From positions 11,325-75,324 of the forward strand of contig METP01000033.1 in assembly GCA_001771365.1 (NCBI GenBank): a DNA stretch of 64,000 bases. The letters run 5' to 3'. The notes under the pieces were generated by a model. That model was not told the origin of the DNA, made no database searches, and worked only from the letters and a program-made list of their open reading frames with translations. This document shows positions 18,884 to 30,143 of the stretch, one piece after another. The DNA comes from a candidate division WOR-1 bacterium RIFCSPLOWO2_02_FULL_46_20. GTDB taxonomy: Bacteria > Margulisbacteria > WOR-1 > O2-12-FULL-45-9. The position numbers and the translations under genes were made by a program. Within the stretch, counting starts at the first letter, position 1. Each line of letters opens with the position of its first letter.

Positions 18884-18968
18884 GCCGCTGTGGCGGAACT
18901 GGCAGACGCGCTTGACTCAAAATCAGGTTGGGTTTACCCCAGTGTCGGTTCAACTCCGACCAGCGGCA
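18884..18968 (+). tRNA. tRNA-Leu (anticodon CAA), type II with a long variable arm; CCA not encoded
   Basis: Manual fold: acceptor GCCGCTG/CAGCGGC, anticodon stem CTTGA/TCAGG with loop CTCAAAA, variable arm TTGGGTTTACCCCAGT, T arm GTCGG-TTCAACT-CCGAC. Confidence 0.8.
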
Positions 18969-18982
18969 TTAAAAAATCTCGT

Positions 18983-19066
18983 GCCCAGGTGGCGGAACTG
19001 GCAGACGCGCTAGCTTCAGGAGCTAGTGGGGTCAAACCCGTGGAGGTTCAAATCCTCTCCTGGGCA
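18983..19066 (+). tRNA. tRNA-Leu (anticodon CAG), type II; CCA not encoded
   Basis: Manual fold: acceptor GCCCAGG/CCTGGGC, anticodon stem CTAGC/GCTAG with loop TTCAGGA, T arm GGAGG-TTCAAAT-CCTCT. Confidence 0.8.
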
Positions 19067-23558: not shown

Positions 23559-24074
23559 ATGGTTAAAGACAAGATAGATCAAATACTTGAAAAGATCGAT
23601 TCGTTAGAAACCGGTCAGAAGTCATTAGTAGCCGGTCAGAAGTCATTAGAAACCGGTCAGAAGTCATTAGTAGCCGGTCAGAAGTCATTAGTAGCCGGTC
23701 AGAAGTCATTAGAAACCGGTCAGAAGTCATTGGAAACCGGTCAGAAGTCATTGGAAACCGGTCAGAAGTCATTAGTGGCCGGTCAGAAGTCATTAGAAAC
23801 CGGTCAGAAGTCATTAGTAGCCGGTCAGAATAAAAATTATGGTTTGATTCAAAAACAAGGCATCATGCTGGAACAGGTCGCTTCTGATGTAAAAGCAGTG
23901 GCGGAAGGACATGCGGCAATAAGGAATGAAATGCAAAGAGGATTTGAAGAAGTTAAAGAACAAATAAAATTCGTGGATGATAAATTGGGATTTGTAGCTA
24001 ATCAGCTTGGCGAAAAAATCGATCGCGTTGAGCAGAAACTGGACGAGCACGTCAAACTGCCAGCACATGTTTAG
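23559..24074 (+). CDS. Tandem-heptad-repeat protein (ETGQKSL / VAGQKSL, about 17 repeats) with a coiled-coil-like C-terminal domain
   Basis: Built from 21-bp DNA tandem repeats (23607-23830). Two upstream sigma70-like promoters lie at 23315-23343 (TTGACA…CATATAAT) and 23444-23471 (TTGACA-16-CATAAT). No signal peptide is present. Confidence 0.6.
   Translation: MVKDKIDQILEKIDSLETGQKSLVAGQKSLETGQKSLVAGQKSLVAGQKSLETGQKSLETGQKSLETGQKSLVAGQKSLETGQKSLVAGQNKNYGLIQKQGIMLEQVASDVKAVAEGHAAIRNEMQRGFEEVKEQIKFVDDKLGFVANQLGEKIDRVEQKLDEHVKLPAHV
23607..23830 (+). repeat. About 10.5 tandem copies of a 21-bp unit (gaaaccggtcagaagtcatta / gtagccggtcagaagtcatta) inside the CDS
   Basis: Read directly from the sequence. 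The repeat is in-frame, so each unit encodes one heptad. Confidence 0.9.
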
Positions 24075-24143: not shown

Positions 24144-24617
24144 GTGAAAAAAAGAATAAGGCCAAAGACCATGCCTGCAAATATTAAACCAAAATCTTTT
24201 CCCATCGTCGGTATCGGTGGTTCGGCTGGAGGGCTGGGGGCATTCGAGGCACTGCTTAAAAATATCTCGGCTAAACCGGGAATGGCGCTAGTCTTTATTA
24301 TGCATTTAACCCCGGGCCATAAAAATCTCCTGCCGGAACTGCTGACCAGGGTGACGAAAATGCCGGTCAGTGAAATACAAAGCGGCCTGATCCCCGAGAT
24401 CAACCATGTTTATGTCAAACCGCCCAACACCGACCTGGCTATCGACGGCAGGAAATTTTTACTTAGCACCAGGGAAAACGCCAGTATCAGACATCTGCCC
24501 ATAGATTATTTTTTCCGTTCCTTGGCGGCAGAGTGCGGCAATAGAGGTATCGGAGTTATTCTGTCCGGCACCGCCACCGACGGGACACTGGGAGCCGGGA
24601 CGATCAAGTCCGCCTGA
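24144..24617 (+). CDS. CheB-type methylesterase catalytic domain, C-terminally truncated, with no receiver domain (possible gene fragment)
   Basis: IVGIGGSAGGLGAFEALL, VFIMHLTPGH and GTATDG match the Ser-, His- and Asp-containing blocks of CheB_methylest. The final roughly 35 aa of the domain are missing, and the ORF terminates before the convergent GT4 gene. Confidence 0.5.
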   Translation: MKKRIRPKTMPANIKPKSFPIVGIGGSAGGLGAFEALLKNISAKPGMALVFIMHLTPGHKNLLPELLTRVTKMPVSEIQSGLIPEINHVYVKPPNTDLAIDGRKFLLSTRENASIRHLPIDYFFRSLAAECGNRGIGVILSGTATDGTLGAGTIKSA

Positions 24618-24656: not shown

Positions 24657-25886
24657 TTAACCTTGAATAATATCTTCGTTCGGATGATCCAGGGCGATCA
24701 GCAAAGCTAAATAATTCCTGAGCTTCCGGGTGATCAGGAATTTCTCCCGGACATGTTCCCGCCCATATTCTCCCATTTTTTTTGCCGCCTGGGGATTATT
24801 GATCAGATAACGGATTTGATAAGCGGTCCCCTCAATTGAATGGACAAGCAAGCCGGTGAAATTATGGATAATCTGCAAGGTGATCCCGCCGACCGCCGAT
24901 GCCACGACCGGCTTGGCTTTCCACAGCGCTTCGGTAACCGTCAGCCCGAATCCTTCCCGCAACGATTTCTGCACTATAACAGTTGACGCTCTTTGCAGGG
25001 CGTTAATCTCCAAATCCGCGTATGGCGGCAGCAGTAGAATGTGTATGTCAGGATCATTTTTAGCCGCTTCCTGCACCTGGTTCAGCACCTGCCCCCCTTC
25101 CGGATCATCGGTCGCTCCCCCGCCAGCCAGTACCAACTGGCAATCATTATGTCTCTTTACCAATTTGTAAGCTTCGATCACCCCGAGAGGGTCTTTAAGA
25201 TAATCAAACCGGGAAATTTGCGTGATGATCGGCCGCGACCGGTCAAGCTTATACTTGCGCGCGACCGTCTCAATCTCGGCAGCGGAAAGATCGCGGTTTT
25301 TTTCGGCTAACGGATCAATGGCCGGGTAGATAAAGTATTTTGGCGCGGCTAGCTTCCTGGCAAACCAGGGAGTGGAAAAGACCGAGGCGTCATATTTTTC
25401 AATATAGCCCTTGAGAAAATCCCAGACATCCGCTTGGGGATGGGAGGTGTCAATGTGGCACCGCCAGACCCATTTGGCTTTTGATCTCTCCTTGGCGGCA
25501 ATAAGACCCGCCGGCTGGGGGTCATGGACAATGACCACGTCCTCATCGAAGGACATTTCGGCAAGATTAGCTGCCGTCGTTTCCTGGAAAACCTTGAACA
25601 TTTCCGTGGAGATATCCGATTTAATCCCGTGCAGGGCGTTATGGAAAGTTTTGGTCACGCCAAAGAACGGTCCGCTCCCCTTGATCACGTCCCATTTGGT
25701 TTTAATGCCGAGCTCATTATAGAGCGGCACGACACGGGTCAGTATCTCCGCCACGCCGCCCCCCACCGCGGTTGAATTGACCATCCTGACGCGTTTACCG
25801 GCGGCTTTTTCCGCCAGCAGCATCAGTTCGTCAAAATTCTGCGGTCGGATGAAGCGAGAATATTCCGCTATCTTATTTTGAGCCAT
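24657..25886 (-). CDS. GT4-family retaining glycosyltransferase, TreT (trehalose glycosyltransferring synthase)-like
   Basis: The C-terminal EX7E motif REGFGLTVTEA is present. The N-terminal block VNSTAVGGGVAEIL…VIKGSGPFFGVTKTFHNALHG recalls TreT-type GT4 enzymes. The gene is the last in a trehalose operon. Confidence 0.55.
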   Translation of the reverse strand: MAQNKIAEYSRFIRPQNFDELMLLAEKAAGKRVRMVNSTAVGGGVAEILTRVVPLYNELGIKTKWDVIKGSGPFFGVTKTFHNALHGIKSDISTEMFKVFQETTAANLAEMSFDEDVVIVHDPQPAGLIAAKERSKAKWVWRCHIDTSHPQADVWDFLKGYIEKYDASVFSTPWFARKLAAPKYFIYPAIDPLAEKNRDLSAAEIETVARKYKLDRSRPIITQISRFDYLKDPLGVIEAYKLVKRHNDCQLVLAGGGATDDPEGGQVLNQVQEAAKNDPDIHILLLPPYADLEINALQRASTVIVQKSLREGFGLTVTEALWKAKPVVASAVGGITLQIIHNFTGLLVHSIEGTAYQIRYLINNPQAAKKMGEYGREHVREKFLITRKLRNYLALLIALDHPNEDIIQG

Positions 25887-26557
25887 TTAAATATCCTGCC
25901 GATCAAGCCATCTCTTTTCTTACGGACCAGAGCAATAATCCGGTCGCGGAGCTGGTCCATAGTGTAAATATAAGGGTCCAAAGCTTCGATCTTCTTTGCC
26001 AGAATTTCATCGCCGTAATTATCCTTGATCCAGTTTGAAAAGTCGTTGCTCCGTTTTGCCAGCCGCAGGCGCGCTTCAAAAAAGTGGAAAAAGAGGGAGC
26101 GCAGGCCGACTTTTTTCAACGCGGCGCAAAACTCATCATAATCCCAGGCCTCATACCTGGTCTTTAAAACGATACCGATCGCCCGGCAGAAATAAAAACC
26201 GCGCTTGGCCGGGACCGTCCCGCCAGCGGGATTCTGGTTTAAATAGCCGTCCAGTATCTCAACGATCTTGTCCCGTAGCGCCCCGAGTTCTGTATAGTCC
26301 TTGATATTAATATTGGCCAGACGCTCCGCCAGGACATGCTCGCCAATCTCTTCTTCCACCCAGTGGGCAAAATCGTTTGTGTAAACCCCGGGCGCGAACT
26401 GGTGTTCGCGGAAAGCGTGGTGGACGTGGTAAAAGATCGATGACTCATCTATCCCCTTCAATATTTCCCTGAATTCTTTGAGATCGCCAGCCTTCTGGCT
26501 GGTGATCTCCACCAGTTGGGAAGAGGTATAAAACTCAAAAGCTGTTTTGGCAGTCAT
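25868..26557 (-). CDS. Conserved hypothetical protein (229 aa) co-operonic with the trehalose genes
   Basis: The ORF overlaps the GT4 gene start by 19 nt. I recognise no family for it. Confidence 0.45.
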   Translation of the reverse strand: MTAKTAFEFYTSSQLVEITSQKAGDLKEFREILKGIDESSIFYHVHHAFREHQFAPGVYTNDFAHWVEEEIGEHVLAERLANINIKDYTELGALRDKIVEILDGYLNQNPAGGTVPAKRGFYFCRAIGIVLKTRYEAWDYDEFCAALKKVGLRSLFFHFFEARLRLAKRSNDFSNWIKDNYGDEILAKKIEALDPYIYTMDQLRDRIIALVRKKRDGLIGRIFKWLKIR

Positions 26558-26576
26558 TATATAATAATAAAAATAG

Positions 26577-26960
26577 TTATTCCTTGACCTTTGTTTTCAG
26601 TCTCTCAACTTCCTGCTTGAGTTCTTTAATTTGTTTGATCAAAAAGGGAATGTTCGGCTTATCGGTTTTATCTTGTGGAAAAGTTCCCGCGACGATCTCT
26701 TCAAAATTGGTGAACCGGTCCTGGTCAGAATCGATATCAGCGATCTTCGCAAAGTTATGTCCCGCGTTTTTGAAATCAAGGGCAAATGGGCCTTGCTCTT
26801 TCATTTTGCCTTTGACAGGATGGCAGGTGGAGCAGGCAGCTAGTTTTGTCCCTGCGGCATCCGGATAATTCTTTTTGAAGGATTCAAGATATTTAGGCGT
26901 AGCAAAAAGAGCGGAACTTGAAAAAATAGAAATCAGACTCACTAATAAAAGAAAACGCAT
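26577..26960 (-). CDS. Small secreted protein with a single CxxCH heme-c-like motif and a DxDxD Ca-binding-like (dockerin/EF-hand-like) segment
   Basis: The signal peptide is MRFLLLVSLISIFSSSALFA. The motifs are AACSTCHP and DIDSDQDRFTNFEEI. The C-terminus is a coiled coil (KQIKELKQEVERLKTKVKE). Confidence 0.45.
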   Translation of the reverse strand: MRFLLLVSLISIFSSSALFATPKYLESFKKNYPDAAGTKLAACSTCHPVKGKMKEQGPFALDFKNAGHNFAKIADIDSDQDRFTNFEEIVAGTFPQDKTDKPNIPFLIKQIKELKQEVERLKTKVKE

Positions 26961-26971
26961 AACTCCCCCCT

Positions 26972-27688
26972 TTATTTATCAACTAAACATAAAAGAAAAC
27001 GGTAAACTGCCGCGACATTAGCCAAATGGCCGTCAACCAGGCTACCTCCGCCGAACCCCACCTTAATAGAAAAACCCACCCCCTTTAACGCCCTAAAGGC
27101 GTCTTCATCAGTCTTATCGTCGCCGATATAAACAGGAGCATATTTTTGCAGCTTCAGGTTTTTAATAAGCCAGCGTACCGCCTTCCCTTTATCCCAATCA
27201 GCCGGCGGGCGGACATCAAATATTTTTTTGCCGGTCGTTATCTTAATGGCACGCCGCCACGGTTTAAGCGCCAGCTTAAAATCCCTTTTGAAAGCATGGA
27301 TAGCTGACATGGCAAGTGAGCGATAATGGACGCTAAGGGTCAAGCCTTTATCTTCAATCAATAAGCCCCGGTAATGGAGTTTGTTCTTAAGTTCGGCTTT
27401 GATCTTTTTTAGCAGCGGAAGTGTTTTTTTTGCGGCCGGATGCACCCAATGCTTCCCGCTGGCCAATATCTCAAACCCGTGGTTGCCAACATAAATAATA
27501 TTACGGATACCAGCCAGTCTTTTGACAACCGATAACTTACGGCCGGAGATGATCGCCAATTTAATTTCGGGATGGCGGGCTAACCGTTTGAGCAGTTTTT
27601 TTCTGGGCGCGGACAGGACTGCCCGTTGCGGATTTTCGACGATAGGCGTCAGCGTTCCGTCATAATCGAGCATCAGGAATAACTTCAT
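26972..27688 (-). CDS. otsB: Trehalose-6-phosphate phosphatase (HAD-IIB)
   Basis: Carries LMLDYDGTLTP (HAD motif I) and IGDDKTDEDAFRAL (T6PP motif). The start was placed at MKLFLM, which immediately abuts the otsA stop. Confidence 0.8.
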   Translation of the reverse strand: MKLFLMLDYDGTLTPIVENPQRAVLSAPRKKLLKRLARHPEIKLAIISGRKLSVVKRLAGIRNIIYVGNHGFEILASGKHWVHPAAKKTLPLLKKIKAELKNKLHYRGLLIEDKGLTLSVHYRSLAMSAIHAFKRDFKLALKPWRRAIKITTGKKIFDVRPPADWDKGKAVRWLIKNLKLQKYAPVYIGDDKTDEDAFRALKGVGFSIKVGFGGGSLVDGHLANVAAVYRFLLCLVDK

Positions 27689-29919
27689 GTTTTTTGCAGT
27701 TCGGTCAGGTTGGTGATAATACTTGCCGCCCATTTATAAACATTGTTGTCGGCTACGACCTTACGCATGCTCTCCATGCGCCGCTTTTGTTCTTCCGGCG
27801 GCATGACGCAGGCAGTCTTGAGGCTGTCGGCAAACTCTTCGATGGCATAAGGGTTGATCTGCAGCGCTTCGGTCAGCTCCCTGGCCGCGCCGGTAAATTT
27901 ACTTAAGAGCAGGACTCCCGCCAGGTCATTCTTTGCCGCCACGTATTCTTTAGCCACCAGGTTCATACCATCGTGCAGCGAACTGACGACGCAAATGTCG
28001 CCGAGCCGGTAATAAGGCTTGATCTCCTCCGGAGTAAAGTACTCTTTTAAGTAGATTATCGGTCGCCAGGCGCCGTTGGTATATTTGCTGTTCTTTTTTT
28101 CTATCAACCGCTCGATCTCGTCCGACAGGTCGTGGTAGCGTTTGATCTTGGTCCGGCTGGGAGCGGCCAACTGCAAAAAGACGAACTTGTTCAGGTATTC
28201 CGGATATTTTCCCAGGAAACGGTCGACGGCCAGGATTCTTTCAACAATACCTTTCGTATAATCAATCCGGTCAACGCCGACGGCCACGATTTTTCCGGCC
28301 AGATCGTATTTCTCTCTTATCCGGTCGATCTCCCTGGCTTCATTGGCTGTGACCGAATAGCGTGATACCCCCTCGATGCTGATCGGGAATGGCCGGACCA
28401 GCGTTTCTTTGCCTGACCTGACAACGCTGTTCTTCTCGTTATCAACACGGCATTCCAGCAGGCGGTTGGCGGTTTCCAGAAAATTATTACAATGATATTG
28501 CACATGGAAGCCGACCAGGTCGCACCCCAGCATCCCATCCAGTATCTCTTTTTGATAAGGACAGACGGAAAAGACCTCCGGGTTCGGCCAGGGGATATGC
28601 CAGAAGAGCGCGATCGTGACATCCGGCCGCTTGTCCTTGATCATCTTGCCCAGCAGCGTGAAATGATAATCCTGGATAAAAACAAAGGCATTTTTGGCCG
28701 GCAGCTCCTCAATAACGCTGTCAGCAAACTTTTGGTTTACCTGTTTATACATCTGCCAGTCGGCTTCCCGGAAGATCGGGCGGGTGAAAGTAATATGACT
28801 AAGCGGCCAGAGGCCTTCGTTGGCAAAACCGTAATAGAAGCCGCCTTCCTCTTCGGGCGTCAGCCAAATTCTTTTTAGGATGTAGCGATTGTCTTCGGGC
28901 GGTACCCCGAGCTTGTCCTTGGAATTCACGAATTGCCGATCGGCGTTGCCGCTCCCCTGGGCAATCCAGGTTCCGCCGCAGGCCCGCATGATCGGATTGA
29001 GTGCCGTCACCACGCCGCTGGCCGGACGGACATATTTTGCCGCCCCCGTCCGCTCATCAAGCACGTGCATGAACGGCTCCCGGTTGGAAACAATAACCAT
29101 AGAGCTGTCGCCGAGTTTGGCGTTGACCAGGTCCTTTAATTTACTTTCCGTCCAGATCTCGTCCTTTTTCAATCTGATCGTGGCCGCTTCGGCCATGCTC
29201 TTTTTGGCCACCCTCAGGCTAAGGGCAACCTGCTCAACCTCACTGGCCAGCTCACCTAATTCACTCTTTTGGCTGATCTCATGCATCTTGCTGGTTTCAC
29301 CCTTCTGGAAATGTTTGAACCAAACCGTGAGCTGCCGCATCGGCACCAGAAACATCTGGCGGAGTACCAGCGCGGCAATGAGCAACAGCGAAATAACCAG
29401 CAAGACCAGCGTGATGATCATGTTCCGCCAAAAGTCCATTGACCGGGCAAAAACATAAGAGGTGTCATAGATCATCTCGACCATGCCAAGTATTTTCCCC
29501 TGGTCATCAAGCACCGGTATAATGTGGCTATAGACATAGATTTTTTTGAATTTCCCCAACAGGTCACTGGCTTCCTTGTTTTTAAGGGCATCTCGATAAT
29601 ATTCGCGCTCTTCGTCTTTCCAATCCCTGAACCTCTCCGTGATCGCTATTAATTTCCCTTCCCGATCGTAAAGCGCGCAGCCCTGGATATTCTTTTTATT
29701 CTGGAATCTCTTAACCAGACGTTGAGCCCCGGCTTGGTCATTATTGGCAAGAACATAACCGGCCGACAACTCCAGGCTTTCCGCGACAGTTTCGGCTTTC
29801 CGCTTGAGATCATCCATTAGTTTATCTTCTTCATATCTGACCTGGATAACGCCAAAAATGATGATAACCAGCGAAACGATGATGATAAGCGGCAAAGCAA
29901 AGACAATTGTTTTTTTCAT
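27685..29919 (-). CDS. otsA: Trehalose-6-phosphate synthase (GT20 OtsA domain) fused to an N-terminal TM–extracytoplasmic sensor–TM–HAMP module
   Basis: The GT20 core runs from about aa 269 (VIVSNREP…, FANEGLWPLSH, FIQDYHFTLLG, FWHIPWP). The N-terminus has TM1 at about aa 7-27, a loop of about 140 aa, TM2 (MIITLVLLVISLLLIAALVL) and a HAMP-like segment PMRQLTVWFKHFQKGE…SELGELASEVEQVALSL. Confidence 0.8.
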   Translation of the reverse strand: MKKTIVFALPLIIIVSLVIIIFGVIQVRYEEDKLMDDLKRKAETVAESLELSAGYVLANNDQAGAQRLVKRFQNKKNIQGCALYDREGKLIAITERFRDWKDEEREYYRDALKNKEASDLLGKFKKIYVYSHIIPVLDDQGKILGMVEMIYDTSYVFARSMDFWRNMIITLVLLVISLLLIAALVLRQMFLVPMRQLTVWFKHFQKGETSKMHEISQKSELGELASEVEQVALSLRVAKKSMAEAATIRLKKDEIWTESKLKDLVNAKLGDSSMVIVSNREPFMHVLDERTGAAKYVRPASGVVTALNPIMRACGGTWIAQGSGNADRQFVNSKDKLGVPPEDNRYILKRIWLTPEEEGGFYYGFANEGLWPLSHITFTRPIFREADWQMYKQVNQKFADSVIEELPAKNAFVFIQDYHFTLLGKMIKDKRPDVTIALFWHIPWPNPEVFSVCPYQKEILDGMLGCDLVGFHVQYHCNNFLETANRLLECRVDNEKNSVVRSGKETLVRPFPISIEGVSRYSVTANEAREIDRIREKYDLAGKIVAVGVDRIDYTKGIVERILAVDRFLGKYPEYLNKFVFLQLAAPSRTKIKRYHDLSDEIERLIEKKNSKYTNGAWRPIIYLKEYFTPEEIKPYYRLGDICVVSSLHDGMNLVAKEYVAAKNDLAGVLLLSKFTGAARELTEALQINPYAIEEFADSLKTACVMPPEEQKRRMESMRKVVADNNVYKWAASIITNLTELQKT

Positions 29920-30143
29920 TGATCGGCCTTCATAGGTCTTCTTCGGGCTCCCTCAATATCCGTGAGTAGCAATAGATGTTTAGCGCAAGTATGCAGGTTA
30001 GCGAAACGATCATAAATATCCAGCCGTATATGTTCATCGGAAACAACCTCCAAGGATTTGGATAATCCTTGAATCCGTTCAAATTTTATCACTTTATCAT
30101 GTGACTGTCGAATATTATTCTCAAGAATAGCCGATGTAAATCA

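Follow-up and report, generated by a model that had tools for sequence, protein, structure and literature searches.

Introduction

Control of trehalose and other compatible solutes is classically exerted at transcription, as for the RpoS-dependent otsBA genes of E. coli, or through effects of ions on soluble enzymes. There are also solute systems that salt activates after translation. Among them are the GT20 enzyme GgpS of Synechocystis and three osmosensing transporters, BetP, ProP and OpuA. A different family of proteins, the HAMP receptor-enzymes, carries the HAMP domain and the catalytic domain in one polypeptide. Examples are the YfiN/DgcN-type diguanylate cyclases and the HAMP-adenylyl cyclases, e.g., Rv3645 of M. 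tuberculosis. The trehalose-6-phosphate synthases (OtsA) that have been solved and studied are, to our knowledge, all soluble cytoplasmic enzymes. Here we describe a gene that joins a membrane receptor front end to a complete OtsA. It is located in a 64,000-nt stretch of contig METP01000033.1 (GCA_001771365.1; contig positions 11,325-75,324, forward strand), which is referred to as the window and in which all coordinates are given.

The fusion shares features with each of these systems, though it is also different from all of them. Its GT-B/GT20 unit (residues 256-744) is like the OtsA of E. coli (PDB code: 1gz5, 1uqu) and Mycolicibacterium thermoresistibile (PDB code: 5jij), with all the checked OtsA residues kept and otsB adjacent to the gene. 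It differs from these enzymes by a 255-residue module composed of a transmembrane (TM) helix, a Cache domain, a second TM helix and HAMP, by S301 in place of G21, and by an NCBIfam score below the equivalog level. The order and size of the input elements (TM1, sCache/PDC of ~135 aa, TM2, HAMP) are those of WalK (YycG) and related histidine kinases in which HAMP is combined with one extracytoplasmic Cache/PAS domain. However, no DHp/HisKA, ATPase domain or phosphorelay follows HAMP, and the output is a metabolic glycosyltransferase. As in the HAMP receptor-enzymes, HAMP would directly drive a catalytic domain in the same polypeptide, and homologous GGDEF proteins were found. The YfiN-type and adenylyl cyclases make second messengers and are catalytic as dimers, whereas the product here is the precursor of a bulk metabolite. 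With GgpS, BetP, ProP and OpuA the fusion would share the concept of solute control at the protein level, without transcription. In those systems, however, sensing is intrinsic to the soluble enzyme or to cytoplasmic domains of the transporter, and there is no Cache sensor with a HAMP relay.

Results

Overall architecture of the fusion protein

The protein has 744 residues, in which TM1, a Cache/PDC domain, TM2, HAMP, a 17-residue connector and GT20/OtsA follow one another (Table 1). We confirm that one gene encodes both a membrane receptor front end and a complete trehalose-6-phosphate synthase. Hydropathy analysis (Kyte-Doolittle, 19-residue window) gives exactly two membrane helices, at residues ~4-27 and 164-190, with peaks of 3.16 and 3.32, while every window outside these two segments stays at or below 1.6. 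The N-terminal MKK precedes TM1 and would lie on the cytoplasmic side. Trp164, at the start of TM2, is invariant in our alignment of 54 family sequences.

The original prediction for 27685-29919, made from the sequence of the stretch, was a TM helix, a periplasmic domain of ~140 aa, a second TM helix, HAMP and OtsA. This order is borne out by hydropathy, Pfam and profile comparisons, with a loop of ~137 aa, and the N-terminal region is indeed predicted to cross the membrane twice. The start of the enzyme, which had been placed at ~268, has to be moved. The enzyme proper starts at Trp256, as judged from soluble GT20 relatives of the same clade, which open with MWTxxxL.

The AlphaFold2 (AF2) model of the full-length monomer has a pLDDT of 84.4, with the lowest values (56-70) across the HAMP region. 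Low confidence at this position is expected for an obligate dimer that is modelled as a monomer. The model has helices at 154-206 (C-terminal helix of the sensor, TM2 and the first HAMP helix, AS1), 220-251 (the second HAMP helix, AS2, and its extension) and 258-269, with a break at 252-257 and a strand at 274-278.

It had also been asked whether the fusion could be an assembly join of two genes, and it survives this check. The identical 744-aa protein is present on six contigs, the five listed of which come from four ENA assemblies and one JGI metagenome, and the neighbouring genes are identical on every listed contig that reaches far enough. A chimera is ruled out by this identity of protein and gene order in separate ENA and JGI assemblies. 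Together with hundreds of full-length orthologues, the identity on six contigs shows that there is no assembly join.

The extracytoplasmic sensor

Profile matches, the AF2 fold and the Foldseek ranking together identify the domain between TM1 and TM2 as a predicted single-Cache/PDC sensor. In Pfam, residues 1-250 give only weak matches, to dCache_1, sCache_4, CHASE8, SMP_2 and HAMP (14 bits). The score of dCache_1 is 33.9 against a cut-off of 45, that of sCache_4 is 22.2 against 22.1, and sCache_3_2 and CHASE8 are weak. Which Cache model is matched varies between members of the fusion family. In NCBIfam, residues ~4-243 weakly match the N-termini of WalK, BarA and chemoreceptors, and the WalK model covers residues 4-242 (E 1.3e-9). 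A profile of residues 26-166, built from 18 GT20-fused sequences, was compared with the PDB. It matches the extracellular domain of S. aureus WalK at E 1.8e-5 and the periplasmic domain of DcuS at E 0.006.

The AF2 model of the sensor, made with 53 sequences, has a pLDDT of 84 and a pTM of 0.76. In this model a long helix at the N-terminus is followed by another helix, by a sheet of five strands into which one helix is inserted, and by a final C-terminal helix. The top Foldseek matches in the PDB are WalK/YycG extracellular domains, including those of S. aureus (PDB code: 5is1, 4ywz, 7dud), which superpose over the whole domain with E 3e-9, a TM-score of 0.74-0.81 and a root-mean-square deviation of 2.5-3.3 Å. 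KinD, CitA, DcuS, DctB and the Cache domains of chemoreceptors come next. A Cache-type fold, raised earlier as a question for residues 28-168 together with a 4HB-type one, agrees with both the profile and the structural comparison. The sensor is closed by a membrane-proximal motif, (Y/H)151-D152-(T/A)-S-Y155, which is, like Trp164, among the best-conserved positions. No conserved ligand-pocket residues were identified in the sensor domain.

The input side of the family is modular. One member of 864 aa (P0018) has repeated sensor-domain sequence ahead of its HAMP-OtsA part. In another of 913 aa (P0137), the module equivalent to the N-terminus of the window protein begins at about residue 177. 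A third, of 894 aa (P0444), has an additional low-molecular-weight phosphatase domain (PF01451).

The HAMP domain and homology of the input module

HAMP is positioned directly after TM2, which ends at ~186, and its two AF2 helices are separated by a connector at 207-219. The motif residues are P193-M-R-Q-L, G207-E208 and S219-ELGELASEVEQVALSL235. In the 54-sequence alignment the hallmarks P193, W200, E227 and L235 are invariant, and G207 is kept in 52 sequences. The HAMP consensus claimed earlier is therefore present as a motif; the Pfam model (PF00672) is below threshold in the window protein, and the support comes from profile-profile comparison. A profile of the fusions alone was aligned by hhalign to ten verified HAMP domains with a probability of 97.7% and E 1.5e-12, over 65 gapless columns (residues 182-246). 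Among these ten, the seven from kinases (Pfam HAMP 40-58 bits) are not fully independent since they were found by similarity to the N-terminus of the window protein, while Af1503, Tsr and PcaY are independent. When a fusion-only profile of TM2, HAMP and linker was compared with the PDB, the matches, at E ~0.01, were HAMP-containing chains (the chemoreceptors PcaY and Tsr, Af1503 and the sensory rhodopsin II transducer) and one designed coiled coil. In one family member (P0225), Pfam HAMP is above the gathering score, with 26.5 bits, at the same position.

When residues 1-272 were compared by phmmer with 1.84 billion representatives, 652 proteins had E <= 0.001. The long matches are mostly GT20 fusions of 739-913 aa. 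The others are histidine kinases (HAMP, HisKA and HATPase_c, some with a receiver or PAS/GAF) and GGDEF cyclases, which are aligned from TM1 to the end of HAMP. In particular, residues ~6-270 align with the kinases P0215, P0224, P0235, P0252, P0254 and P0270 and with the GGDEF proteins P0153 and P0170, with E-values of 1e-10 to 1e-20. In the homologous histidine kinases HAMP passes Pfam at the matching position (186-237). Thus, the comparison of this front end with the input modules of chemoreceptors and histidine kinases holds, as homology to kinase and GGDEF modules extends over the whole of its 270 residues. It follows from these homologues that the TM-Cache-TM-HAMP cassette drives recognised signalling outputs elsewhere. 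In the window protein, GT20 alone follows HAMP, with no recognised signalling domain (kinase, MCP, GGDEF/EAL, cyclase or phosphatase). Because GT20 is the only domain after HAMP, we do not place the protein in any existing receptor class. When both halves were searched by phmmer against all open reading frames (ORFs) of at least 80 aa, stop to stop, neither a second copy nor a kinase with the same sensor was found in the window.

The connector between HAMP and the enzyme

The connector is conserved in both sequence and length. Ala246 and Arg249 are invariant in the 54 sequences, Ala238 is found in 53 and Arg239 in 51, and Glu245 is also invariant or nearly so. These five residues are above most sensor positions in conservation. 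The distance from E227 in AS2 to R280 in the enzyme is 53 residues in 321 of 345 unique fusion sequences (93%). Other sequences have 52 or 54 residues, a shorter group has 45-47, which is about one heptad less, and one sequence has 61. The two parts of this distance behave in the same way: E227 and W256 are 29 residues apart in 329 of the 345 (21-23 in the shorter group), and W256 and R280 are 24 residues apart in 337. A passive tether is not expected to hold both length and sequence, so this is the behaviour of a signalling linker. From these conservation patterns, the coupling between HAMP and the enzyme looks mechanical rather than a loose tether.

The OtsA enzyme

The C-terminal unit is predicted, from its sequence, to be a complete and intact OtsA. 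Pfam Glyco_transf_20 covers residues 273-739 with E 4e-119 and 398.8 bits against a cut-off of 32.5, using profile positions 2-472 of 473, and the best match in the PDB is M. thermoresistibile OtsA (5jij, E 1.4e-87). We aligned the unit with E. coli K-12 OtsA (from NC_000913) and checked eleven residues, which we take to be the catalytic, donor and acceptor residues from published OtsA structures. All are identical, the pairs (window protein/E. coli) being R280/R9, G302/G22, Y362/Y76, W371/W85, D417/D130, H441/H154, R551/R262, K556/K267, R589/R300, D650/D361 and E658/E369. All eleven are invariant across the fusion family. In the E. coli enzyme R9, Y76 and R300 presumably bind the phosphate of glucose-6-phosphate. 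At the position of E. coli G21 the window protein has S301, and the serine is kept in the family.

The NCBIfam OtsA model (TIGR02400) scores 416.9 bits, below its trusted cut-off of 564.85, though it is still the best single-function model. The bifunctional-enzyme model is also below its trusted cut-off (468 bits against 634), and the glucosylglycerol-phosphate synthase (GgpS) model is behind the OtsA models with 309.9 bits. A score below the equivalog cut-off makes the exact substrate less certain, but not the fold.

Soluble OtsA relatives of the same clade open with MWT(K/R)xxL, ~24 residues ahead of the SNREP strand, and W256-T257 is invariant among the fusions. Given the MWT start of the soluble relatives, we assign W256-T257 as the start of the ancestral enzyme and place the junction at ~252-256. 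The AF2 break at 252-257 agrees with this.

Distribution of the fusion

In a first homologue search, at least 120 clusters were found with 64-100% identity. Nearly all of these have 743-747 residues, and most are from metagenome-assembled genomes (MAGs) of Candidatus Omnitrophota. A search with the N-terminal profile gave only short or partial proteins, which we attribute to the candidate selection of the tool, and a full-length profile recovered full-length relatives. We then used the family alignment as a query in a scan of GTDB, with one genome per species, and kept the 80 closest loci. The fusion architecture (TM, ~135 aa, TM, ~80 aa, GT20) is found in 58 of these, a number that is biased to relatives of the query and should not be read as the share of fusions among OtsA genes in general. 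About six loci have one TM helix and a short linker, and about fifteen are plain soluble enzymes.

More than ten phyla are represented in the labels of the fusion records, though these are the depositors' labels and some of those on MAGs may be wrong. They are Omnitrophota, Acidobacteriota (Sulfotelmatobacter, Acidoferrales, Edaphobacter), Elusimicrobiota, Desulfobacterota (Geobacter, Smithellaceae, Desulfuromonadaceae), Nitrospirota, Methylomirabilota, Verrucomicrobiota, Gemmatimonadota, Bacteroidota (Puia), Myxococcota, Bdellovibrionota and Alpha-, Beta- and Gammaproteobacteria. Among the cultured carriers are Bosea sp. CRIB-10, Caenimonas koreensis DSM 17982, Janthinobacterium sp. GB4P2 and Oligoflexus tunisiensis. 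Thus, the fusion belongs to a large and old family that is not peculiar to this genome, a point on which the original prediction did not remark. Given its presence at 58 of the 80 nearest loci and under more than ten phylum labels, the fusion is retained by selection.

The proteobacterial branch has N-termini without a Pfam match. Its N-terminal module is homologous throughout to that of the window type (hhalign 99.8%, E 5e-30). The periplasmic domains of this branch (e.g., in L045, L053 and L078) have two invariant cysteines, at 84 and 103 of the first sequence, which are not found in the window protein and could form a disulfide or a redox-sensitive pair.

OtsA relatives with one TM helix and neither sensor nor HAMP are found in Mesorhizobium (L062, L069, L072) and on plasmid pAA02 of Aminobacter aminovorans (L087 3782-5599). 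In these, a linker of 50-60 residues with a conserved REFEKN motif is followed by an enzyme that starts with W-(T/S)-P-(E/D)-T-L. The A. aminovorans protein (WP_083948901.1, 605 aa) is simply named trehalose-6-phosphate synthase in RefSeq.

Some members of the fusion family are named trehalose-6-phosphate synthase/HAMP domain-containing protein by JGI. A description of the sensor-HAMP-OtsA fusion was not found in the searchable literature, in agreement with the earlier statement that this architecture is not characterised. An Omnitrophota paper that was checked mentions only "trehalose synthesis". The closest hint comes from a passage in a Geobacter genome paper, which says that GSU2337 "contain[s] a domain" 37% identical to the M. 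tuberculosis enzyme (PMC2700814). GSU2337 of Geobacter sulfurreducens may thus be another carrier, a lead that comes from this passage and not from its sequence.

Gene neighbourhood

The ATG of otsB overlaps the TGA of otsA (ATGA), as read in the sequence of the junction, and most fusion loci have otsB a short way downstream in the same orientation. Genes for a DUF5752 protein and a TreT-type trehalose synthase come after otsB in loci labelled Omnitrophota, Acidobacteriota and Elusimicrobiota, among others. Since the fusion, otsB, DUF5752 and TreT recur together in these loci, they constitute a conserved four-gene trehalose cluster. The TreT gene of the window scores 368 bits with NCBIfam TreT_Thcocales, which is below the cut-off. 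DUF5752 is always directly upstream of TreT, and often overlaps it, in the window and in L006-L010, L012, L015, L016, L021, L023, L025, L060, L082, L084, L088 and L091. The DUF5752 protein may be a partner or regulator of TreT.

The upstream neighbours of the fusion gene in the window are, by Pfam, a cation P-type ATPase and an APC-family permease. They were rejected as conserved context, since the upstream neighbours are different in L091, which has a 76%-identical orthologue, and in L088.

Several further features are present around the cluster. Between otsB and DUF5752 there is a gene (26577-26960, minus strand) for a secreted-looking, cytochrome-c-like protein of 127 aa with one CxxCH and weak matches to a GEGP diheme protein and to Temptin_C. 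It is absent from the equivalent clusters of L091 and L088. A 35-aa ORF (MNIYGWIFMIVSLTCILALNIYCYSRILREPEEDL; 29930-30037, minus strand) with one predicted TM helix and a GGAGG Shine-Dalgarno sequence ends 10 nt before the start of otsA. Two assemblies (L004, L005) have a gene call for it, and it has no Pfam match. Its only homologue found elsewhere is weak, a 58%-identical peptide just after TreT in L016 (10944-11021). As a conserved partner of the fusion this ORF is unsupported, being absent upstream of the orthologue in L091. A 10-bp hairpin (TTCAAGGATT...AATCCTTGGA; 30049-30073, minus strand) is located between the promoter-like site and this small ORF, with a 3' arm that shares bases with the GGAGG ribosome-binding site. 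As a structure of the 5' untranslated region, the hairpin could occlude this site. An Rfam scan of the whole window found no upstream RNA element, the only matches being RNase P and two tRNAs.

Two further ORFs are on the opposite strand. One (23559-24074, plus strand; 171 aa) has about thirteen tandem 7-residue units (GQKSLET/GQKSLVA). The called length of this gene is 108, 185, 113 and 155 aa on the near-identical contigs L001-L004, and these differences suggest that the repeat number is variable or has been collapsed in assembly. The other (24144-24617, plus strand; 148-157 aa) is a stand-alone CheB_methylest ORF without a receiver domain, beside the trehalose cluster.

Table 1. Features of the fusion gene, its protein modules and the surrounding window
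Feature	Position	Strand	Evidence
Sensor-HAMP-OtsA fusion, whole gene	27685..29919	-	ORF list; ATG start; 744 aa + stop
TM1, residues ~4-27	29839..29910	-	Hydropathy peak 3.16; AF2 helix 2-58 spans TM1 and first sensor helix
Predicted single-Cache/PDC (PAS-like) sensor, residues 28-163	29431..29838	-	Weak Pfam Cache, PDB profile matches, AF2, Foldseek
TM2, residues ~164-186	29362..29430	-	Hydropathy peak 3.32; AF2 helix 154-206 unbroken from sensor via TM2 into AS1
HAMP, residues 187-238: AS1 ~190-206 (P193, W200), connector 207-219 (G207), AS2 220-238 (E227, L235)	29206..29361	-	hhalign, PDB profile
Conserved helical connector, residues 239-255 (R239, E245, A246, R249)	29155..29205	-	Column counts, spacing, AF2 helix 220-251
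GT20/OtsA unit, residues 256-744, with its own N-terminal helix (W256-T257...L261)	27688..29154	-	Pfam, PDB match, residue alignment
otsB, trehalose-6-phosphate phosphatase, 238 aa	26972..27688	-	Pfam Trehalose_PPase E 1e-45; TIGR00685 170 bits against cut-off 68
DUF5752 protein, third conserved cluster gene	25868..26557	-	Pfam DUF5752 E 3e-65
TreT-type trehalose synthase (GT4), fourth conserved cluster gene	24657..25886	-	Pfam TreT_GT1 E 1e-55
Best sigma-70-like promoter match upstream of the cluster, TCGACA-17-TAAAAT, extended -10 TG	30083..30111	-	10/12 positions; consensus match only
Bacterial class A RNase P RNA and two adjacent tRNA genes	1721-2128; 18884-19066	+	Rfam; RNase P 242 bits

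Discussion

Proposed mechanism

We consider it moderately probable that this protein is a dimeric receptor-enzyme, in which HAMP and the fixed connector relay an input from the sensor or the membrane to the N-lobe of OtsA. In the predicted topology, the sensor would be outside the cytoplasmic membrane, and the N-terminus and all parts that follow TM2 would be in the cytoplasm. Other HAMP receptors suggest, by analogy, a dimer in which both TM2 helices would continue into a four-helix HAMP bundle. The conserved helical connector of fixed length would link AS2 to the N-terminal helix of the complete OtsA. The packing of HAMP would be shifted by a stimulus that acts on the sensor or within the membrane, and the rigid connector would carry this shift on to the N-lobe of the GT-B enzyme. 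There, the predicted strand beta-1 starts 18 residues past the junction and carries R280, which is aligned with Arg9 of E. coli OtsA. Synthesis of trehalose-6-phosphate would be switched on or off without new transcription, and the translationally coupled OtsB would then produce trehalose.

Signal-gated catalysis is, we infer, the best reading of this gene. Likewise, we infer the dimerisation, the existence and direction of the regulation, and the nature of the stimulus. For the last, osmotic or envelope stress would be our guess, made from the role of trehalose. We also propose that a widespread and undescribed class of receptors may exist in which Cache and HAMP allosterically switch the GT-B OtsA, so that trehalose is controlled by an outside or membrane signal independently of transcription. 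On this broader proposal we find the arguments to be evenly balanced.

Several observations weigh against signal-gated catalysis. The score of PF00672 in the window protein is only 14.2 bits against a cut-off of 25, and Pfam HAMP reaches E <= 0.01 in 6 of the 54 family members. In the proteobacterial branch, no significant hhalign match to the verified HAMP domains was obtained. Since HAMP is unrecognisable there, canonical HAMP signalling may have disappeared from part of the family, or may never have operated in it. The existence of the one-TM relatives indicates that membrane anchoring alone is useful to this enzyme clade. The AF2 model predicts a break between HAMP and the enzyme instead of one continuous signalling helix, and its pLDDT at HAMP is low. 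Finally, for the extracellular domain of WalK, the nearest structural relative of the sensor, we know of no established small-molecule ligand.

Alternative explanations

Some of these points are also in favour of a passive membrane anchor. The N-terminal module could do no more than tether, and perhaps dimerise, a constantly active OtsA on the inner side of the membrane, with Cache and HAMP as relics of the donor that have no part in signalling. This could bring synthesis close to a transporter, a channel or a lipid acceptor. The one-TM relatives in cultured Mesorhizobium and Aminobacter are consistent with this explanation, as are a HAMP that is below threshold in most members and unrecognisable in the proteobacterial branch, and a sensor in which no conserved ligand-pocket residues were identified. 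However, a relic would drift, yet the distance between AS2 and the enzyme is fixed in 93% of the 345 sequences, with the main shorter group being about one heptad less. The connector has invariant residues, the HAMP hallmarks P193, G207 and E227 are kept in 52-54 of the 54 sequences, and the 250-residue module is still homologous across distant depositor phylum labels. We regard a passive anchor as the main rival of signal gating, possible though rather unlikely.

It is also conceivable that the enzyme is regulated, but not by osmolarity. The sensor could report the state of the envelope or cell wall or a specific periplasmic metabolite, like Cache domains of the WalK, CitA and DcuS types, and the output could be for carbon storage, signalling or the envelope instead of the build-up of a compatible solute. 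The nearest structural neighbours of the sensor, i.e., the extracellular domain of WalK and the carboxylate sensors KinD, CitA, DcuS and DctB, are in line with such a role. So is the second trehalose route in the cluster (TreT with DUF5752), since both routes may serve different conditions. On the other side, no ligand-binding residues can be assigned in the sensor, and the adjoining P-type ATPase and APC permease would be in keeping with ions or osmolarity, though they are not conserved with the 76%-identical orthologue. We think this explanation is quite improbable.

An artefact (a chimera or read-through) or a GT20 product other than trehalose-6-phosphate, e.g., glucosylglycerol-phosphate, is very hard to sustain: though the NCBIfam OtsA and bifunctional scores are below their trusted cut-offs and the GgpS model also matches, the identical ORF is on six contigs of separate assemblies and hundreds of orthologues have the same length, the OtsA models outscore the GgpS model, every checked OtsA residue is conserved, including the equivalents of R9, Y76 and R300, and the translationally coupled trehalose-phosphatase is above its trusted cut-off.

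Significance of the receptor-glycosyltransferase family

What is new here is the recognition of a large and conserved receptor-glycosyltransferase family, and not of a unique gene, as sequences have been public for years and some have been named for HAMP. In most members routine Pfam analysis sees only GT20, and domain censuses thus under-report the architecture. The proposed switching of a two-lobe GT-B enzyme by a four-helix HAMP bundle can be tested directly, as there are carriers in culture.

If signal-gated catalysis is true, the outputs of HAMP would extend past kinases, chemoreceptor domains, second-messenger cyclases and phosphatases to a glycosyltransferase for a bulk metabolite. We know of no earlier report of HAMP signalling to a metabolic glycosyltransferase, and this would be the first case. 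Beside transcription and the effects of ions on soluble enzymes, the fusion would provide a third way of controlling metabolism, directly from the cell surface. Members of the family are common among soil Acidobacteriota and among Omnitrophota, for which tolerance to desiccation and osmotic stress is of ecological importance.

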